A DNA stretch of 64,000 nt from the NCBI GenBank assembly GCA_963205265.1, contig CAUJJI010000052.1:1266-65265 (forward strand). Reading direction: 5' to 3'. The notes below the pieces were generated by a model. It worked only from the letters and a program-made list of their open reading frames with translations, was not told where the DNA came from and searched no databases. Source of the DNA: Pseudomonadota bacterium (GTDB lineage: Bacteria > Pseudomonadota > Alphaproteobacteria > Sphingomonadales > Sphingomonadaceae). Numbering within the stretch: position 1 is the stretch's first letter; each line of letters starts with the position of its first letter. A program made the translations under genes and the position numbers. Of the stretch, positions 6,180 to 28,272 are shown piece after piece.

Positions 6180-6427
6180 GCAACTTCCGCGAACAGCGGC
6201 GCGTCGCCAGCGATGCGGCGCCGGGCCATGTCGGCATAGGCCGGGGACAGCTCGATCAGGATCGCGTCGCGCTGGAGCCGATCGGCGACCAGCCCCGTGG
6301 TGCCGGCGCCGCCGAATGGATCGAGCACGGTACCGCCTGGAGGGCATCCGGCAAGAATGCACGGTTCGATGAGCGCAGGCGGGGACGTGGCGAAGTGGGC
6401 GACGGTTTGATGCGGTACAGCGTTCAT
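6176..6427 (-). pseudogene. 5'-truncated beta-class N6/N4 DNA methyltransferase (AdoMet-binding C-terminal half only, 83 aa)
   Basis: HFATSPPALIEPCILAGCPPGGTVLDPFGGAGTTGLVADRLQRDAILIELSPAYADMARRRI matches the HPxxFP...LDPFxGSGTT...IGIEL end of beta-class MTases. No DPPY/SPPY half lies upstream. It has its own GGAGGA SD plus ATG, so it may still be translated. Confidence 0.65.
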
Positions 6428-6719
6428 CAGGTCCTCCGCGAGAAACCCCGTCCTTCAGGGCGGGGAGGTAGAGCGTGCCGCGTACTGTTCTTTCGCACAG
6501 TGCTATGATTGGCCTGTTGCGCCGATTCCCTGCGATTACGCACCGGCGAGACACGTAGCACCCCGAATTGAATCGTTGGCCGTGAGTGCTCTCGCGGTTC
6601 CGGTCGGCAGGCGGCAACGCTGGAGGCCGATGTGAAGTAAGGCGATGACGAGTAGTCGCCGGCTCCGGGCATGGAGCCCCGAACTTGGGAATCCTCGTCA
6701 TTCATGGCGTGGGTGGATG
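6428..6719 (-). other. ~290 nt non-coding, lower-GC, hairpin-rich segment (possible ncRNA or decayed IS200/IS605-type remnant)
   Basis: No plausible ORF in any frame. Local hairpins: CCCCGTCCTTCAGGGCGGGG (6446-6465), GGCTCC-GGGCAT-GGAGCC (6661-6678), and GGCGATGACGAGTAGTCGCC. On the minus strand there are two 8-bp long-range complements (ATGACGAG/CTCGTCAT and CCGCGAGA/TCTCGCGG). Confidence 0.4.
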
Positions 6720-7214
6720 TCAATGCCTCTCCGGCTTGAAGAAAACCAACCAATGCGTCATTCCATGTCGCCCCGAAACCTGTCCGAATAGCGGCGCCGC
6801 CGGTGCCAGCGGCAATACCTCGGCCAGCTTCACCTGGGTCTCGTTCCATTTGAAGACGAGCGTCCCGCCGGGCGACAGGACGCGCCAGCACTCGGCGAAG
6901 CCCTGTCGTAGATCGGTGCGCCAGTCGCTGCCCAGCTTTCCGTAACGGGCTGCCAGCCACGATCGAGGGCCGGCCCGGACGATGTGTGGCGGATCGAAGG
7001 CCACGAGCCGAAACGAGACGTCAGGGTACGGCAGCGCCCGGAAATCCATCAGCACATCAGGCTCGATGCGCAGGACGCGCTGGCCGTCGTCGCGATGGCT
7101 GCGATCGGTGACAGTGACAGTCTCGGACCGGATGTCACCGAACACCGCGTGCTCGCTGGCCCTGTCGAACCACATCGCGCGGGTGCCGCAGCAAGGGTCG
7201 AGAATGGCTTTCAC
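6720..7214 (-). CDS. small SAM-dependent DNA methyltransferase (164 aa; motif I ILDPCCG, motif IV DPPH)
   Basis: GTG start at 7214 preceded by GGGGAGGGGG. VKAILDPCCGTRAMWFDR...FRLVAFDPPHIV...CWRVLSPGGTLVFKWNE is typical of short phage MTases. Confidence 0.8.
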   Translation of the reverse strand: MKAILDPCCGTRAMWFDRASEHAVFGDIRSETVTVTDRSHRDDGQRVLRIEPDVLMDFRALPYPDVSFRLVAFDPPHIVRAGPRSWLAARYGKLGSDWRTDLRQGFAECWRVLSPGGTLVFKWNETQVKLAEVLPLAPAAPLFGQVSGRHGMTHWLVFFKPERH

Positions 7215-7375
7215 GACCCCCTCCCCGGCGGCACCACCGTCCACCCGTGCCGCCTCAGCAGCCGCGCCGCCGCCTTGACCGCCGCCTGCTGCTGGTTGCC
7301 GCTGGTCCGGGGCTTCGGCGCCGGCCGGGCGGTGAGCTGCGCGGCCATCGCGGCGAAGGGGGAGCGGACGTCCAT
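7211..7375 (-). CDS. small hypothetical protein (54 aa)
   Basis: MDVRSPFAAMAAQLTARPAPKPRTSGNQQQAAVKAAARLLRRHGWTVVPPGRGS. TGATG overlap upstream and GTGA overlap downstream suggest translational coupling. Confidence 0.45.
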   Translation of the reverse strand: MDVRSPFAAMAAQLTARPAPKPRTSGNQQQAAVKAAARLLRRHGWTVVPPGRGS

Positions 7376-7656
7376 CACCGCCCCTCCGCATCATCAGGAT
7401 CCTGGTAGCCGGGCAGCTGGATTCCCCGCGCTGCCGCGACCTCGTGGATCGCGAACAGGCCGTCCTGGATGCTGCGGATCATGGCCGCGCAGTTGGCCTC
7501 GGTGGCCCCGACGCTCTGGAGATGGAGGAGCGCGTGCTCCGCGCTCCGCTGGACGAGCTGCTGCGCCGTCAACTCGGCCGCATTCATGGCCTGCAGGCTG
7601 CGCTTCCACTGCTCGATCTTCTTCGGCGAGGTGCCGGCATTCTCGATGACGGCCAT
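7375..7656 (-). CDS. hypothetical phage protein (93 aa)
   Basis: Start taken at ATG 7656 (MAVIENAGTSPKKIEQWKRS), which overlaps the upstream stop. Confidence 0.55.
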   Translation of the reverse strand: MAVIENAGTSPKKIEQWKRSLQAMNAAELTAQQLVQRSAEHALLHLQSVGATEANCAAMIRSIQDGLFAIHEVAAARGIQLPGYQDPDDAEGR

Positions 7657-21704: not shown

Positions 21705-22418
21705 TCACCGCGGATAGATCGCCGCGACTTTGTGGATTGATTCGATCTTGTCCAGCGACTCGGTCAGCCCCGGGTACCCGGGGTTCAGTGACCCGAAAGC
21801 GGCCTCGCCGTCGCGGATGTAGAGCAGCTTTTTCAGGGCCTTGCGCTGATCTTTCAGGCGGACGACGACGGTGTCTCCGGGCTGCGCCTCGACGCCGGGC
21901 ACGACGAGGATGCGATCGCCCGAGCTGAACTTCGGGGCCATCGAGTCACCCCGCACCCGCCGCGCGTAGGCGCTCTTGTCCCTGGATGCATTCGGCACCC
22001 GCCCGTCGCCGTGACCGGGCGGGTATCCGTACTCATCGAAGAACCCGTCTGGCCCGCCCAGCACGTCCCCAACGACAGGCGACCACCCGCCATCGGGTGG
22101 CGCTTCCGCGTCCTCCAGTTCGTCGTCGATCTTCGGCCGGCCCGAGCCTCCTGTCCCCTCGGGTTTCCCCTCTGGGTGGGTTTTCACGGGGGAGGAAGCG
22201 GTCTTGGTCAGGTCTTCGGGTAGTGGCTGTCGACCCGTCAACTGGTCAATGGTGATACCGAGCGCGTCCGCGATCTTTCCGTGACGCCACGTTGGTAGGT
22301 CGCGACTTTTCCAGTTTGTGACATCGGACGACGACGCGCCGACCTTCTCGGCGAGCTGGGTCTGATTCCAGCCGCGAGCCCTCATCACGAACAGAGCGAT
22401 GTCGACAGGTCGATCCAT
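21705..22418 (-). CDS. cI: CI-type phage repressor (N-terminal XRE HTH plus C-terminal S24/LexA-like peptidase)
   Basis: WNQTQLAEKVGASSSDVTNWKSRD helix-turn-helix. RRVRGDSMAPKFSSGDRILV with downstream K (RKALKKL) matches the S24 Ser/Lys dyad region. Divergent from the Cro-like gene. Confidence 0.9.
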   Translation of the reverse strand: MDRPVDIALFVMRARGWNQTQLAEKVGASSSDVTNWKSRDLPTWRHGKIADALGITIDQLTGRQPLPEDLTKTASSPVKTHPEGKPEGTGGSGRPKIDDELEDAEAPPDGGWSPVVGDVLGGPDGFFDEYGYPPGHGDGRVPNASRDKSAYARRVRGDSMAPKFSSGDRILVVPGVEAQPGDTVVVRLKDQRKALKKLLYIRDGEAAFGSLNPGYPGLTESLDKIESIHKVAAIYPR

Positions 22419-22480: not shown

Positions 22481-22554
22481 CCCCTCTGTCAAGATAGTTG
22501 GCATGTCGACCGATGCCAGAATTCTTGAATCGAGGGGCAGTTAGGAAAGTCAGG

Positions 22555-23046
22555 ATGTCGAGGTATACGAAAGAGAAGAAGGAGCACGCGCTGGGGCTGA
22601 TGAGCCCACCGCAGAACCTGCCGACAGCGGAGGTGTCCAGGCGCACGGGGATCAGCGAGCCGACGCTGTACGGCTGGCGCAACCAGGCCCGGGCAACGGG
22701 GCGAGCGGTGCCGGGAGACGGCAGCAATGCCGAGGATTGGAGTGCGCAGGACAAGTTCGCGGTAGTGGTCGAGACGATGGGGCTGGCCGAAGCAGAACTG
22801 GCCGAGTACTGCCGGCGCAAAGGCCTGTACGTCGAGCAGATCGAGCGCTGGCGCGAGGCTTGCCTGCAGGCTAACGCCGGTGGCACCGAGCGAGTCAGCG
22901 CGACGGCGCTGGCCGAGGAGCGACGGCGCAGCCGAGGGCTGGAGAAGGAACTGCGACGCAAGGAGAAGGCGCTGGCGGAGACGGCGGCGCTGCTGGTGCT
23001 CAGCCGAAAGCTCGAGGCGTTGTGGAACAAAGGCGAGGACGCATGA
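22555..23046 (+). CDS. IS3-family transposase OrfA (HTH)
   Basis: Start taken at ATG 22555 (MSRYTKEKKEHALGLM...EVSRRTGISEPTLYGWRNQ), followed by a leucine-zipper-like C-terminus. Confidence 0.85.
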   Translation: MSRYTKEKKEHALGLMSPPQNLPTAEVSRRTGISEPTLYGWRNQARATGRAVPGDGSNAEDWSAQDKFAVVVETMGLAEAELAEYCRRKGLYVEQIERWREACLQANAGGTERVSATALAEERRRSRGLEKELRRKEKALAETAALLVLSRKLEALWNKGEDA

Positions 23047-24086
23047 CAGCGTTGCCGCAACGCCAGGAACTCGTCGCGCTGGTGCGGGCGGCGCAGGCCA
23101 GTGGCGCCCGGCTGAAGCCGGCCTGTGAGGAACTGGGTATCTCGCTGCGCACCTGGCAGCGCTGGAGCGACGGCGAGCAAGTGCCCGCCGATGGCCGGCC
23201 GCAGGCAAAGCGGCCGGTGCCGGCCAACAAGCTCAGTGCCCAGGAGCAACGCGCGGTGCTGGACACCTGCCTGCAGCCGCGCTTCGCGGACATGCCGCCG
23301 ACGCAGATCGTGCCGATTCTGGCTGATGAAGGCTGCTACCTGGCCAGCGAATCGACCTTCTACCGACTGCTGCACGCTCACGATGCGCAACAGCACCGGG
23401 GTCGGCAACGACAGCGCTGCCGCAAGCCGGCGCCGATGCACGTCGCTCGCCGGCCCAATGAAATTTGGTGTTGGGATGTCACGTACCTGCCCAGCCAAGT
23501 GAGGGGCCTGTTCTTTTATCTGTACGCCGTCATCGACCTGTACAGCCGAAAGATCGTCGCCTGGGAGGTGCACGCCGCCGAGAACGGTGAGCTGGCCGCC
23601 GAACTGATCGAACGGGCCCGCTGGCGCGAGCATCTGCGAGGCAAGCCCGTGATCCTGCACGCCGACAACGGCGCGCCTCAGCGTTCGCTGACCTTGCGCG
23701 CGAAGCTGCGGGAACTGGGCATCGAGCCCAGCTACAGCCGGCCCGGCGTCAGCGACGACAACGCCTTCATCGAGTCCTGGTTCCGTACGCTGAAGTACAT
23801 GCCGGCCTGGCCCAGCGTCGGCTTCACCGATCTTGATCAGGCTCGCGCCTGGGCGCTGAAGTTCATCGACTGGTACAACGGCTCGCATCGCCATCGCGGG
23901 ATCGGCTTCGTCACCCCGAAACAGCGTCACAACGGCCAGAGCAAGGCCATCCTCGCTCGTCGTCGCGACGTCTACGAAGCTGCCAGGCGCGCTCATCCCG
24001 AGCGCTGGAAGCGCGACATCCGGCGATGGTCCGAGCCCGATCATGTCTGTCTCAACAAGCGTGAACAGGAGAGGCGTTCCGCATAG
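23043..24086 (+). CDS. IS3-family transposase OrfB (DDE/rve integrase core)
   Basis: ATGA overlap with the orfA stop, in the -1 frame. DDE context WCWDVTYL, LHADNGAPQ, SDDNAFIESWFRTLK. Confidence 0.9.
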   Translation: MTALPQRQELVALVRAAQASGARLKPACEELGISLRTWQRWSDGEQVPADGRPQAKRPVPANKLSAQEQRAVLDTCLQPRFADMPPTQIVPILADEGCYLASESTFYRLLHAHDAQQHRGRQRQRCRKPAPMHVARRPNEIWCWDVTYLPSQVRGLFFYLYAVIDLYSRKIVAWEVHAAENGELAAELIERARWREHLRGKPVILHADNGAPQRSLTLRAKLRELGIEPSYSRPGVSDDNAFIESWFRTLKYMPAWPSVGFTDLDQARAWALKFIDWYNGSHRHRGIGFVTPKQRHNGQSKAILARRRDVYEAARRAHPERWKRDIRRWSEPDHVCLNKREQERRSA

Positions 24087-24129
24087 ATCCCTTCTTGCTC
24101 GACACGCCATCTATCTTGACAAACACCGC

Positions 24130-24145
24130 AAACATCGTGTGTAAT
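24130..24145 (+). promoter_or_regulatory. right half of the split PR-like promoter (operator half-site plus -10)
   Basis: AAACATCG-TGTGTAAT. The -10 TGTAAT (24140-24145) ends 6 nt before the cro ATG (24152). Confidence 0.5.
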
Positions 24146-24151
24146 GTATGA

Positions 24152-24454
24152 ATGGCCGACGCTGATCAAATACACCGTCTCGAGACGCCACAAGGCATGG
24201 CCGTCGATGCCGCAGGCGGTCCGGCGGCCGTCGCAAGCACGATAACGCGACTCACCGGGCGCGATATCTCGATCCAGCGACTTTGCAACTGGATGACGCG
24301 GGGCGTACCGGTGGAGTTCTGTCGGCCGTTCGTAGAAGCGGTCGATGGGCTGGTCTCGGTTGCCGACCTCCGTCCCCATGACTGGGATCTGATCTGGCCC
24401 GAGCTAGTCGACGTCGACCACCCCGCTCCCAACCCCGAGCGAAGCGAGGCATAG
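24152..24454 (+). CDS. cro: Cro/YdaS-like DNA-binding protein (100 aa)
   Basis: Divergent from cI. AVASTITRLTGRDISIQRLCNWMTRGVPVEFCRPFVEAVDGLVSVADLRPHDW resembles YdaS/Cro-family proteins. Confidence 0.7.
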   Translation: MADADQIHRLETPQGMAVDAAGGPAAVASTITRLTGRDISIQRLCNWMTRGVPVEFCRPFVEAVDGLVSVADLRPHDWDLIWPELVDVDHPAPNPERSEA

Positions 24455-24655
24455 ATGACCCCTGACAAGCGCCCTTGGCTCGTCGGCGAGGCTGGCCCGG
24501 AGGTGGTGCGCGCCGCCCCGGCGCAACGCAGGAAGGGCAGGGCTGCGCTGACCGAAGCCGACGTGAGGCGGATCGCGCGGGAAGAGGCGGAGGCTGTTCA
24601 GGCCGAGCACGCCTCGGTACGGCAGGCTATGCGCGAGTCCCGTCGCCGCTCTCTC
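24455..24655 (+). pseudogene. possible 5' remnant of a gene interrupted by the tnpB-containing block
   Basis: The ATG abuts the cro stop. High GC3 for ~66 codons (MTPDKRPWLVGEAGPEVVRAAPAQRRKGRAALTEADVRRIAREEAEAVQAEHASVRQAMRESRRRSL), then the coding signal collapses. The same reading frame resumes at ~26705. Confidence 0.3.
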
Positions 24656-24920
24656 GAAGGATTGTCACAAGCCTCGAAACCCCATTCAAAGCCCGAAGCG
24701 ACCCCTCCAGCTCAGCTGGAAACCACTCCTGAGCAATCGGCGCCTCTGCATCTTCGCGAGACCGAGTCGAGACAAGCCGAAGGCAGTCCTCCGCTTCCTT
24801 CAAGAACAGGGTCGTTGCTTCGTCTGTTTCGCAGGTTCTGGCGATGAGCAGCGAGATGCACGTCTTCAAGGCCTCGATCTCGCCCGACTGGGTTGCAGAT
24901 TCTTTGACGTTTTCGTCCAT
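24627..24920 (-). CDS. reverse-strand orphan protein (97 aa, helical)
   Basis: Start taken at ATG 24920 (MDENVKESATQSGEIEALKTCISLLIARTCETDEATTLFLKEAEDCL). Lower GC than the surrounding sequence. Confidence 0.5.
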   Translation of the reverse strand: MDENVKESATQSGEIEALKTCISLLIARTCETDEATTLFLKEAEDCLRLVSTRSREDAEAPIAQEWFPAELEGSLRALNGVSRLVTILRESGDGTRA

Positions 24921-25102
24921 GGGTCGCTCCCGTCGTGGAAGTCTGGTTGGTGGAACACCCATTCAACCACGGCGGGCAGCGACCTACCCCACAGCAGAGA
25001 GGGCGGAGTAGGCGATGGCCGGCTCGTCCAAGCCCCTGGGCCCACCTGGCGCCGCAGAAAAGCTGGCCGCGTGGCTTCTTGATCGCCCCCCGTTTCTTTG
25101 GG

Positions 25103-25489
25103 TCATTCGCCTTCATCAGTGGTTGACGGACCGGATTCTGGAGCGGGTCTTTGGCCCTCAGATGGACTCGCCGAGGTACGTCGCACCAGAAAGTCGGTCC
25201 GGTCGCGAAAGCCGGCCAGATGGAGGTGGTTCGTCGTGATCTGCCCGGATACATCGAACAGGGATACGTGGTCGACCGGTGCCCCCGGTATCGCGAGGTC
25301 CCGGTACAGCAGGTCGATCGGCTTGGCCGACAAGCCGCAGATTGCCACCGAGTTCTCGTCGGTCAGGGCGGTCTCGAACTCGGCGAACTCGCGTCGGACG
25401 CAGGCCATAACCCGCTGCGCTCGTGCCGCCTTGTCGATGTTGCGTGCGCCCTTCGAAGCGAAGTGGATCAGCAAGAGATATCGAGTCAC
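25103..25489 (-). CDS. reverse-strand orphan protein (128 aa, GTG start)
   Basis: GAAGGGGG SD 5 nt before the GTG at 25489. High GC3 for ~100 codons (TRYLLLIHFASKGARNIDKAARAQRVMACVRREFAEFETALTDENSVAICGL). Divergent from tnpB. Confidence 0.55.
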   Translation of the reverse strand: MTRYLLLIHFASKGARNIDKAARAQRVMACVRREFAEFETALTDENSVAICGLSAKPIDLLYRDLAIPGAPVDHVSLFDVSGQITTNHLHLAGFRDRTDFLVRRTSASPSEGQRPAPESGPSTTDEGE

Positions 25490-25623
25490 GGTCGCCCCCT
25501 TCGGCGGTCAATCGGTGGTTGGCGCCTCGATTGTCCATCGTTGCGGGGCGACCTCCCCTCCGCAGGTGCCCGCATGAATCCGGACACCGACACCGCCTGC
25601 TGGCAGTCGATGCGAGGCGTCAG

Positions 25624-26667
25624 ATGCAACTGACGTACCGATTCCGGTTGAAAGACAAGCACGACGCCGAGCTGCGTAGGCAGGCCTGCGCGGTCAATTT
25701 CGTCTGGAACTTCTGCGGCGAAACGCAGAGGTCGGCGCTGCGGTGGCGCAAGCAGTGGCCGAGCGGGTATGACCTGAACAGACTCACGGCGGGATCGTCA
25801 AAGGAACTCAATCTGCATGCTCACACGATCCAGCAGGTGTGCCAGACCTTCGCCCGATCTCAGGATACCAAACGCAAGCCGATGCTGCGTTGGCGTGGCA
25901 AGAGGTCGCTCGGCTGGGTGCCGTTCAACAAGGGCCATGTCCGGTTCGACGGCGAAGCGCTCGTCTTCCGTGGCGTGCGGTACTTCGCATGGCTGCATCG
26001 CGATCTCACCAATGGCCAGACGTTCGGCGCCGGCTCGTTTTCGCAGGACGCGCGTGGTCGCTGGTACATCAATCTGCCGGTCGAGGTCGAATTTCTCGAC
26101 AATGCGCATGGCGACGCCATTGGAATCGATCTTGGCCTGAAGGACCTGGCGACGATCAGCACGGGCGAAAAGATCGAAGCGCCGCGCTGGTACCGCCGGC
26201 AGCAGGAACAACTGGCGGTAGCGCAGCGGGCGCACAAGAAGAAGCGCGTTAAGGCGATCCACGCCAGAATCGCGAACCAGCGCAGGGATCACCTGCACAA
26301 GCTTTCAACCCGCCTCGTGCGGTCGCACGGGGCGATCTTCGTCGGCAACGTGAATGCAGCCGGCCTGGTGAGAACGAAGATGGCGAAGTCCGTCCTCGAT
26401 GCCGGGTGGGCGACGTTCCGAAAGAACCTCGAGTACAAGGCCATCAGGCATCAGGTTCTGTTCGATGTTGTCAATGAAGCGTTCTCCACCCAGACGTGCT
26501 CGTGCTGCGGGGCCATCCCTGCCAGCAGTCCGAAAGGTAGGGCCGATCTCGGAATGAGGCGATGGCGGTGCTGCGAGTGCGGAGCGGAACACGACCGCGA
26601 CGTGAATGCAGCCCGGAACATTGCCGCTCGCGGACTGGCGAGCCTCGCAGGAGGAGCCCATGCCTGA
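25624..26667 (+). CDS. tnpB: TnpB (IS1341-type RNA-guided RuvC nuclease, 347 aa), no TnpA partner
   Basis: Start taken at ATG 25624 (MQLTYRFRLK). RuvC motifs AIGIDLGLKD and EHDRDVNAARNIAARG. Zinc finger CSCCG...CCECG. Confidence 0.9.
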   Translation: MQLTYRFRLKDKHDAELRRQACAVNFVWNFCGETQRSALRWRKQWPSGYDLNRLTAGSSKELNLHAHTIQQVCQTFARSQDTKRKPMLRWRGKRSLGWVPFNKGHVRFDGEALVFRGVRYFAWLHRDLTNGQTFGAGSFSQDARGRWYINLPVEVEFLDNAHGDAIGIDLGLKDLATISTGEKIEAPRWYRRQQEQLAVAQRAHKKKRVKAIHARIANQRRDHLHKLSTRLVRSHGAIFVGNVNAAGLVRTKMAKSVLDAGWATFRKNLEYKAIRHQVLFDVVNEAFSTQTCSCCGAIPASSPKGRADLGMRRWRCCECGAEHDRDVNAARNIAARGLASLAGGAHA

Positions 26668-26703
26668 GGACCGGATGCCCCGGCTTTCAGGCGGGGAGCA
26701 GTC
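26480..26703 (+). ncRNA. predicted omega/reRNA scaffold spanning the tnpB 3' end and the right end (boundaries approximate)
   Basis: By analogy with characterised TnpB elements. Local stems are CTCGC-GGACTG-GCGAG and a terminal hairpin CCCCGGCTTTCAGGCGGGG (26678-26696), followed by AGCAGTCA. The guide would be read from about 26704 onward. Confidence 0.35.
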
Positions 26704-26869
26704 ATGGCAGTCCATCACGACATTCGCCGCCCAGGCCGCCCCGGAGCGCCGGCAGACCGCTGTCGAGGCTGCAATGCGCATGTGGGACAGCATGCACCCC
26801 GGCGCCAGCGCCGACGAGTCGCTGGCGGCTTATGTGCGCATCGAGCGGCTGTTCGGGAGCGGGTCGTGA
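26660..26869 (+). CDS. hypothetical protein; 3' coding segment resuming after the tnpB right end (69 aa if started inside the element)
   Basis: Strong GC3 signal from ~26705 (SITTFAAQAAPERRQTAVEAAMRMWDSMHPGASADESLAAYVRIERLFGSGS). An in-frame GGAGGAG SD plus ATG at 26660 lies inside the tnpB 3' end. Confidence 0.5.
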   Translation: MPEDRMPRLSGGEQSWQSITTFAAQAAPERRQTAVEAAMRMWDSMHPGASADESLAAYVRIERLFGSGS

Positions 26870-27072
26870 CTGACCTCTTCGCGCCCGTCAAGGTCGAGGC
26901 CGCCTGCGCCGAATGCGCGAAGGGCGGCATCGTCTACCAGATGACCTGTGACTCATGCTGGGTGCGGTGGTTCAAGGCGTTGCCGAACCGCCGGCTGAAG
27001 ATCGCGGCGTGGCGCAGCCGGCCGGACTTGCATCAACGGTTACGCCAGGACGCCGGCCATGCCGCTCACTGA
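26866..27072 (+). CDS. small Cys-rich protein (68 aa, GTG start)
   Basis: GTGA overlap with the upstream stop. VTDLFAPVKVEAACAECAKGGIVYQMTCDSCWVRWFKAL. Confidence 0.5.
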   Translation: MTDLFAPVKVEAACAECAKGGIVYQMTCDSCWVRWFKALPNRRLKIAAWRSRPDLHQRLRQDAGHAAH

Positions 27073-27631
27073 AGGCGACATCGCGCGCATCGTCGGCCGC
27101 CAGGTGCTCGACCGCAAGTGCGTCGTGCTGGTCGACCGCTGCAACTGGACGGGCAGCGAATGCGACGTGCTGGCCGTCACGACAGACCTGCGCGTCATCG
27201 ACGTCGAGATCAAGACGAGTCGCGCCGACTTCAAGGCGGATCGCCGCAAGGACAAGTGGTGGCGCCGCTATGGCTGGCAGTACGGCACGCCGGAGCCGAA
27301 GCCGACGCCGCTGGAATGGCCGCGTCGCGTGTGGAAACACTACTTCGCGATGCCCGCCGACATCTGGTCGGATGACCTCGCTGAATTCCTGCCGTCGCCG
27401 GCCTGCGGTGTGCTGTTGATCGGTGACTCCGCGGGCGAAACGCATCGCGGACACGTCACCAATCCGCTCTACCGGGTCAGGTGCAAACGGCGCGCCAAGC
27501 CGTGCCGCGACGCCGACCGGCTGACACCCGCGCAGGTGATGGCAGTCGCCCGTCTGGCCAACCTGCGCATGTGGGATGCCTACGAGAGGCGGGATAGGGC
27601 GGTGCGGCCGGCGGCAGGGGTGGCGGCATAG
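27059..27631 (+). CDS. MmcB-like PD-(D/E)XK nuclease (190 aa)
   Basis: ECDVLAVTTDLRVIDVEIKTSRADFKADRRKDKWW...HYFAMPADIW matches the MmcB-family pattern. Confidence 0.7.
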   Translation: MPLTEGDIARIVGRQVLDRKCVVLVDRCNWTGSECDVLAVTTDLRVIDVEIKTSRADFKADRRKDKWWRRYGWQYGTPEPKPTPLEWPRRVWKHYFAMPADIWSDDLAEFLPSPACGVLLIGDSAGETHRGHVTNPLYRVRCKRRAKPCRDADRLTPAQVMAVARLANLRMWDAYERRDRAVRPAAGVAA

Positions 27632-27726
27632 TGTTCACGCACACGGATAGGGTAGCTCCCGAAGAGGCGGTCTTCCCGGCCCGCTCTGCCGTCGTGCCCC
27701 TCTTGCCGGGGTCGTCGGGACGACAG

Positions 27727-28272
27727 ATGAGCAAGGACTTTTTCGCGCAGTACATGGACCCGCGCTGGCAGAAGCTGGCCGCTCGGATGAAGGAGGCCGC
27801 AGGCTGGGAGTGCACCAACTGCGGCTCTGGCGAGCAGACGCTTCACGTCCACCACAAACAGTACTTCAGGGATCGCAAGGTCTGGGAGTATGACGAGGCC
27901 GAGTTGATGGTCCTCTGCAAGGACTGCCATGTCACTGCAGACAAGCACCGCGAGCTGGTGAAGCGGATGCTATCGCTCGAATCCACGTTCGGTATCCCAG
28001 CGGTTCTGGCCGGCTTCCTCGACTTCGACGAGAACATCCGAGCGGTCGCCCCGGAGGTGTTGGACGAGGCCCGGTTCGTGGCGCCGCTTGAGTATGCGGC
28101 AGGCTTCATCGCCAGCATCGCGGCTAGAGGGCTATCGATCGACCAGATGTACCAGGTGGCGTACTTCGCCGCCAGTCTCACCAGAAAGACTTCCGAGGAG
28201 CGCATGCGCCTCGCGACGTCTGGCGCTCTTTTCGGTCGCGATGGCGAGGACTGGAGCATCGTCGATGCCTAA
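27727..28272 (+). CDS. HNH-motif protein (181 aa)
   Basis: Start taken at ATG 27727. CTNCGSGEQTLHVHHKQY...LMVLCKDCHVTADKH. Confidence 0.65.
   Translation: MSKDFFAQYMDPRWQKLAARMKEAAGWECTNCGSGEQTLHVHHKQYFRDRKVWEYDEAELMVLCKDCHVTADKHRELVKRMLSLESTFGIPAVLAGFLDFDENIRAVAPEVLDEARFVAPLEYAAGFIASIAARGLSIDQMYQVAYFAASLTRKTSEERMRLATSGALFGRDGEDWSIVDA

Follow-up and report, generated by a model that had tools for sequence, protein, structure and literature searches.

The 64,000-nt stretch of DNA considered here (the window, from contig CAUJJI010000052.1 of the Sphingomonadaceae assembly GCA_963205265.1) carries a lambdoid prophage whose early operon contains a gene for TnpB, an RNA-guided nuclease of the IS200/IS605 type. 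Reading rightward, the block in question begins with cro, continues with an orphan open reading frame (ORF) coupled to it (orfN), an orphan ORF on the minus strand (rev111) and a native phage gene also on the minus strand (orf128), and ends with tnpB and the right end (RE) of an insertion element, beyond which the early genes of the phage resume. The initial annotation had taken some 2 kb of this DNA to be a single element, which had split one early gene and might carry the two reverse-strand ORFs as passengers. The evidence set out below points to a different arrangement, in which the block is composite and a stranded tnpB unit of ~1.1 kb, lacking its left end (LE), probably lies inside a small early gene.

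The product of tnpB (25624-26667, plus strand, 347 amino acids) matches the Pfam families OrfB_IS605 (PF01385; E 1e-16, 61.7 bits, cut-off 30.5) and Cas12f1-like TNB (PF07282; E 3.4e-22, 78.8 bits, cut-off 26.3) as well as the NCBIfam model guided_TnpB (NF040570; 233.9 bits, cut-off 100), all above the curated cut-offs, and aligns to the structures 8bf8 and 8exa of ISDra2 TnpB (E 2.8e-27); its attribution to the IS200/IS605 type is thereby upheld. The initial annotation had also credited the protein with intact RuvC motifs and a zinc finger. This is correct for the RuvC-I Asp (in IDLGLKD), for the RuvC-III Asp (in HDRDVNAARNI) and for the C4 zinc finger (CSCC...CCEC), which lies between RuvC-II and RuvC-III and aligns with that of the relatives and of ISDra2. 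RuvC-II had been passed over: there the residue aligned to the canonical Glu of ISDra2 is a Gly (VGNV), an alternative Glu being found in VNEAFSTQTC. This Gly and this Glu are common to all of the ~20 relatives aligned, the relatives having been collected by a scan of one genome per species that yielded 74 loci with related TnpBs, mostly in Burkholderiales, and the same pattern of motifs occurs in relatives that are multi-copy and presumably mobile. TnpB clades with a rearranged RuvC-II (RIIr), in which Gly replaces the catalytic Glu, have been described (Altae-Tran et al. 2023, PMC10691335), and the motifs of the window's protein fit this description. Both the nuclease gene and the RNA scaffold look functional, the conservation of the rearranged clade suggesting that it is active. 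The exact tnpB protein is on record on 11 contigs; 376 phage records match it, so that TnpB in phages and prophages is common and its detection here is, in itself, routine annotation.

The 3' end of tnpB overlaps the RE, which is predicted to encode the omega-RNA scaffold as well (26525-26704, plus strand, ending ...AGCAGTCA). A profile of the relatives' REs matches 26590-26698 in an nhmmer search (E 1.7e-7), and the similarity to the best relative, Polaromonas glacialis (locus L025, 66% amino acid identity), halts exactly at 26704 (...GGGGAGCAGTCA in the window, ...GGGGAGAAGTCA in L025), the terminal bases of the window's RE aligning with ...AGAAGTCA(A) of that locus. For these two reasons the hairpin CCCCGGCTTTCAGGCGGGG at 26678-26696, which had been proposed as the end of an omega-RNA (reRNA) scaffold, can be identified with the terminal hairpin of the relatives' REs, to which it is homologous. 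RNAalifold, applied to 22 RE regions, yielded a consensus of 26 pairs, 17 of which show compensatory changes, and the window keeps the consensus stems (e.g., GCTCGC/GCGAGC). The guide of a TnpB lies immediately 3' of the RE; since the similarity to L025 ends at 26704, it is expected to start at 26705. The scaffold thus ends just past the hairpin, as had been suggested, whereas the guide start previously placed at 26704 has to be moved to 26705. The predicted guide/target segment reads TGGCAGTCCATCACGACATT (26705-26724, plus strand), its candidate target sequence being TGGCAGTCCATCACGA; the host assembly was searched for a further occurrence of this 20-nt segment, as the initial annotation had advised, and no second match was found with up to two mismatches.

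The limits of the multi-copy relatives' elements, as given by the copies within one genome, enclose 1181-1342 nt, with an LE that opens 110-250 nt upstream of the ATG and an RE that extends ~40-80 nt past the end of the tnpB match. The former has the structure (T)TCATC...CCGAGAAA-CCTCGGCATTCATGCCGGGG-AGG, the latter GGGAAT-CCCCGTCCTTTAGGGCGGGG-AGGATGTCAA. A blastn comparison of the window with L025 returns similarity only at 25621-25711 and 25906-26704, so that homology opens three bases ahead of the tnpB ATG, within a 12-nt leader (25612-25623, plus strand) that contains a Shine-Dalgarno (SD) sequence, GAGG. Upstream of this point, the LE profile found nothing within 24000-25623 and, assembly-wide, matched only a mini element at 6423-6723; a covariance model run with its filters off detected no LE in 24000-25623 and matched the RE hairpin only; folding of the DNA upstream of tnpB produced no C-first hairpin with a TTCA loop; and pairwise alignments of 25530-25626 to the relatives' LEs remained at the level of shuffled sequences (z -0.6 to 2.8). 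Two candidates picked out of this DNA were discarded, namely 25113-25150, where TTCATCAGTGGTT resembles the LE of locus L030 but has no hairpin and falls inside orf128, and the minus strand of 25540-25583, where ATTCATGC and GGGGAGGT occur in the right order but in the wrong orientation and without a score. The Y1 transposase TnpA (PF01797) is encoded in the genomes of four of the five multi-copy relatives and has no match in the host assembly (4.45 Mb in 253 contigs, 90% complete), which bears out the absence of TnpA reported for the locus; the search for other copies of the element in the same assembly showed tnpB to be single-copy. Judging from these comparisons, the DNA related to TnpB amounts to a compact ~1.1-kb unit (~25612-26704) from which the LE, with its TnpA-binding hairpin, would have been lost and, with the LE missing and no Y1 TnpA in the assembly, this unit is stranded and unable to transpose.

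A few observations concern the relatives' elements and the ends of this family elsewhere in the window. In L025 (3770-3940) and L087 a divergent ORF of ~46 amino acids (MxxxKxxGRPP...RLTxAQW, read by eye) is found between LE and tnpB, and in L026, L030 and L050 a co-directional ORF, ribbon-helix-helix-like by eye, just precedes tnpB. The mini element at 6423-6723 is tnpB-less, PATE/MITE-like and ~300 nt long, and has ends of the same family: its LE (TTCATCAGG...CCCCGTCCTTCAGGGCGGGGAGG; nhmmer E 6e-15) is the only one in the whole assembly and its RE ends with GGATGTCAA at 6723 (E 7e-7). A second omega-RNA-like transcript, guided by TGCCTCTCCGGCTTGA, might arise from this element, and the stop codon of a methyltransferase-like ORF (6720-7394, minus strand) falls within the last bases of its RE.

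A repeat search revealed that the unit made of SD, tnpB and RE is bracketed by an 11-nt direct repeat, TGGCAGTC[G/C]AT. The left copy, TGGCAGTCGAT (25601-25611, plus strand), is preceded by CCTGC, ends 12 nt before the tnpB ATG and falls at the left limit of the tnpB-related DNA, whereas the right copy, TGGCAGTCCAT (26705-26715, plus strand), opens at the first base after the RE and constitutes the first 11 nt of the predicted guide. The two copies match at 10 of 11 positions, and a match at least as good within the 134-nt upstream stretch was obtained with 0.65% of the 11-mers used as controls and with 0.12% of shuffled sequences; a flanking repeat of this kind was seen in none of 30 RE flanks of relatives. 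The spacing of 1104 nt places both copies in one phase. The left copy lies within a stub ORF (MNPDTDTACWQS-MRGVRCN*; 25574-25633, plus strand) that is proposed to be the original start of the interrupted gene (orfC): its ATG is preceded by an SD-like AGGTG, G or C occupies the third position in 11 of its initial 12 codons, its phase is that of 26705-26869, and beyond the right copy of the repeat its frame runs on as WQSITTFAAQ... to 26869. Furthermore, the ATG stands 84 nt from the start of orf128, as compared with a gap of mostly 86-88 nt between orf128 and the rightward gene in relatives. Taken as they stand, these features suggest a native gene of ~63 codons, broken by the unit behind codon 12; position 25574 would then be a genuine native start, and the uninterrupted gene would begin MNPDTDTACWQSITTF... 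with a single TGGCAGTCNAT.

The reading frames of this segment follow one another without gaps. The stop of the stub ORF (25633) overlaps the start of tnpB, 7 nt after its ATG; the tnpB stop (26665-26667) overlaps an ATG at 26660, internal to the RE and preceded by GGAGGAG; and the 69-aa ORF that starts there (26660-26869, plus strand; 15 residues encoded by the RE followed by 54 encoded by the phage flank) has its own stop overlapped (GTGA) by the GTG start of the next early ORF (26866-27072, plus strand), for which no family match was found. Expression is thus probably achieved by translational coupling along the early operon. The exact 69-aa product is on record on 13 contigs. The earlier suggestion that the ATG at 26660 could re-express the downstream gene part is plausible, since L025 (5050-5470) shares the RE insertion holding the ATG (GCATGA); there too the ATG overlaps the tnpB stop, and the frame that it opens crosses the RE end and continues into a gene whose product begins KIYMVGGAVRDKLLG (KIYMVGGAVRD), a start typical of CCA-adding enzymes (cca). 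In L025 the element seems, therefore, to supply the start codon of that gene; for this subclade, the cases of possible re-expression number two. A general rule by which the RE ATG re-expresses the flanks was considered for the main family and discarded: of 20 ATG-bearing RE ends, 9 are open in frame 1 and only 5 in frame 0 (open meaning at least 60 codons), and ACG replaces ATG in 12 of the 32 RE ends tested.

To the left of the unit lies orf128 (25103-25489, minus strand, 128 amino acids), which consists of a conserved core of ~108 residues and of a tail of the last ~20 codons specific to the window's copy. Pfam, PHROG, PADLOC and NCBIfam gave no match; on the other hand, a HMMER search over 1.84 billion representatives recovered a small uncharacterised family (E 4.5e-12 to 3e-4) of ~107-110 amino acids with the motif RYLVLIHFA...SHPGL. 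In IMG/VR, the orf128 homologue is convergent with a YdaS/Cro-like gene and overlaps its 3' end at nine of nine loci (L124-L132), with a divergent cI-like repressor beyond that gene in all of them and with no tnpB within 5 kb in any; the far side is taken up by the next early genes, which at L125, the locus checked with Pfam, are a CII (CP76) gene followed by a replication gene. The cro of the window is homologous to four of the nine Cro-like genes (those of L125, L126, L129 and L132). Since the homologue is antisense to cro in nine of nine tnpB-less viral loci, orf128 belongs to the immunity region of the phage; its family, not described before, is a conserved constituent of lambdoid immunity regions, where it lies opposite the end of cro on the other strand, and orf128 is a candidate lysogeny-expressed or interference gene. 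The 84-nt intergenic region that separates it from the next rightward gene (25490-25573) contains no detectable LE, and its alignment with the relatives was uninformative. A perfect 9-bp inverted repeat, GGTCGCCCC / GGGGCGACC, enclosing a 6-bp inner one (CAATCG / CGATTG), is present in 25490-25552 and may be an operator, although the overall fold has a z-score of 0.

As to the prophage as a whole, a cI-like repressor gene (21705-22418, minus strand) is followed by an IS3-family OrfA/OrfB pair (22498-24086; HTH_Tnp_1 and rve in Pfam) and then by cro (24152-24454, plus strand; Pfam YdaS_toxin E 1.2e-5, PHROG 35 transcriptional repressor), a Cro/YdaS-like helix-turn-helix gene. The IS3 pair, lying between cI and cro, disrupts the rightward early promoter region, and the prophage is probably decaying. 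The exact proteins of the locus, including the 69-aa product initiated in the RE, are on record on 11-14 contigs, which indicates fixation of the insertion within the lineage sampled. A search of 60 related genomes for relatives of the region at DNA level was negative; related prophages reached through the MmcB-like neighbour numbered 22 loci, the intervening genes being unconserved. The cro query retrieved nothing from IMG/VR, no Rfam family covers the region, and patterns of sigma-70 promoters or intrinsic terminators were found nowhere in it. A sub-threshold match to the Rfam int-alpA RNA (27640-27711, plus strand; 29.7 bits, gathering score 35.8, E 0.006) falls at the start of an HNH-endonuclease-like ORF (27631-28272).

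The premise that a single element of the IS200/IS605 type extends from ~24650 to 26704, with rev111 and orf128 as passengers and with 24455-24650 and 26705-26869 as the two parts of one split gene, was drawn in the first place from the GC content at third codon positions (GC3). In the frame that opens at 24455 (orfN, 24455-24847, plus strand, coupled to cro by TAG then ATG), GC3 is 0.80-0.87 up to ~24640 and 0.50-0.63 thereafter, so that the loss previously located near 24650 is real; the signal in the same phase returns to 0.80-0.87 between ~26575 and 26889, however, and thus not directly after the hairpin but ~100 nt before it, in the Ala/Gly-rich tail of tnpB. Since codon-position GC over 24640-24909 favours the minus strand, i.e., rev111 (24627-24962, 111 amino acids; 97 amino acids, 24627-24920, in the database gene call), the remainder of orfN past ~24640 is probably non-coding, low-complexity read-through. 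That the intervening ~2049 nt is a multiple of three, previously offered as evidence, carries little weight, the left point being arbitrary and identity of phase a one-in-three event. A somewhat lower GC across 24650-26600 would likewise suit a 2-kb element, but the phage as a whole shows values anywhere from 0.54 to 0.72, and the weak likeness by eye to an LE lead-in at 24669-24712 (CCTCGAAACCCC...TTCA) is accompanied neither by a hairpin nor by a hidden Markov model or covariance-model score at 24650, for which reason this candidate was rejected too. No homologue of either supposed gene half, other than the query itself, was obtained from 300 genomes of the same family, INPHARED, IMG/VR, a database of 5.8 billion proteins or the ESM Atlas; in the last of these the only leads for orfN, to viral hypothetical proteins of 71-96 amino acids, were weak; a match in a JGI metagenome (L133) was dismissed as due to chance, since it lies inside a membrane protein. 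In the same 5.8-billion-protein database rev111 matched only itself. Above all, the elements of the relatives measure 1.18-1.34 kb, the element sequence of the window maps only to ~25.6-26.7 kb, and orf128 is syntenic with cro in the nine tnpB-less viral contigs, which also means that the cro / antisense-ORF layout exists in relatives independently of tnpB. A composite transposon of 2 kb is, accordingly, largely refuted and may be regarded as highly improbable.

The arrangement that we consider probable is that of a composite block, cro being followed by the orphans orfN and rev111 and by the native orf128, and then by a unit consisting of the 12-nt SD leader, an intact tnpB and an omega-RNA-encoding RE, whose left end would be gone and which would be lodged in the 5' end of the small rightward early gene starting at 25574. 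Several points weigh against this arrangement. The nuclease activity of the rearranged clade is deduced from conservation; three of the parts, namely orfN, rev111 and the interrupted gene, are orphans; the uninterrupted allele is deduced and not seen; 12 codons are too few to establish that the stub is coding; and the terminal RE hairpin of the window lacks 1 nt that L025 has, a deletion which weakens it and could impair the RNA or recognition by TnpA. Moreover, IS200/IS605 transposition makes no target duplications, so that some non-canonical origin has to be assumed for the 11-nt repeat, unless it is a matter of chance or of a secondary event. Alternatively, a complete compact element could have been inserted by TnpA in the canonical manner between orf128 and the next early gene, e.g., just after the TCCATC at 25534-25539, and its LE could then have decayed beyond recognition; the repeat and the 25574 start would be coincidences, and the downstream ORF would be 5'-truncated or would always have begun near 26705. 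Such an insertion would agree with the distance of ~90 nt from TCCATC to the tnpB ATG (75-111 nt in compact relatives), with the TCATC-like motifs that precede the LE of this family and with the existence of a hairpin (GCGGGG...CCCCTCCGC) at 25543-25563. This hairpin, however, is opposite in arm polarity to that of the RE and has no hidden Markov model or covariance-model score, which is why TCCATC was rejected as an LE candidate, the 84-nt spacing to the SD and ATG at 25574 fits a native phage layout, and the repeat is unlikely to have arisen by chance; a decayed LE is therefore rather unlikely. As for the persistence of the unit, an intact ORF and intact RNA stems in spite of the lost LE and of the missing TnpA, the seamless coupling into the early operon, the occurrence of the same TnpB clade in the Ralstonia phages Heva and Hyacinthe and in the Salmonella phage LPSTLL, and the recurrence of the exact protein on 11 contigs would all be expected if tnpB and its omega-RNA had been co-opted by the phage and were under selection, be it as a weapon or homing device directed at uninterrupted relatives or as an RNA-guided regulator. 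Yet the host contains no further target of the guide, the intactness may merely reflect recent insertion into a prophage that looks decaying, and the catalytic residues are those of mobile relatives, at variance with a dead regulator of the TldR type; we regard this explanation as quite improbable. With a similarly low degree of confidence, it can be envisaged that the LE-less unit was captured through RNA-guided cleavage and not by TnpA transposition. A TnpB expressed from a donor copy in a related allele would have cut the uninterrupted phage gene, and repair would have copied RE and tnpB from the donor at the right side and joined them illegitimately on the left; as a result, the TAM-proximal 11 nt of the protospacer (TAM, target-adjacent motif) would be duplicated (25601-25611 from the allele with G, 26705-26715 from that with C) and no LE would be present.

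The main value of this analysis is corrective, in that the element measures ~1.1 kb and not 2 kb and the reverse-strand ORFs are phage genes. Beyond that, a stranded unit bracketed by the duplicated start of its own guide target bears on the question of how TnpB spreads without TnpA; should the capture just outlined have taken place, the locus would be a trace left in nature by TnpB-driven homing into the genome of a phage, and the operon-coupled unit could exclude or convert related phages lacking the insertion. This bracketed unit, the RE-internal start that overlaps the tnpB stop and is in frame with the downstream gene in both of the subclade members seen, and the small gene family that accompanies cro on the opposite strand in lambdoid immunity regions may all be of some limited value for follow-up.

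Among the known systems, the TnpB-only (IS1341-type) derivatives of IS200/IS605 are like the window in their TnpB domains, in the scaffold overlapping the 3' end of tnpB and in an RE whose C-rich hairpin is subterminal and which ends ...GTCA(A), whereas the unit described here is single-copy, has no recognisable LE and is found in a genome without TnpA; unlike canonical IS200/IS605 insertions, which are not flanked by duplications, it lies between the two copies of an 11-nt direct repeat. The closest counterparts in isolated phages are those of the Ralstonia phages Heva and Hyacinthe, which belong to the same clade and have the same RE with 51% amino acid identity, their ISPa83-like label being the depositors' annotation only. 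With the RuvC-II-rearranged clades (PMC10691335), the protein shares the Gly at the position of ISDra2 Glu278, the alternative Glu before the zinc finger and the DRDxN of RuvC-III. The ISDra2 TnpB/omega-RNA complex (8bf8, 8exa, 8h1j) has in common with it the Asp of RuvC-I and that of RuvC-III, the zinc finger and, overall, the C-terminal half, but the window's protein is without the canonical RuvC-II Glu and shorter (347 against 408 amino acids), and the LE flank of its family suggests a TCATC-like TAM as opposed to the TTGAT of ISDra2. The tnpB-less, PATE/MITE-like derivatives of IS200/IS605 are represented in the window by the mini element, which belongs to the same end family but is separate from the tnpB unit, its RE being of the main-family type and not of the subtype found beside tnpB. 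Finally, in contrast to the nuclease-dead regulators of the TldR type, the TnpB of the window keeps the Asp of both RuvC-I and RuvC-III.

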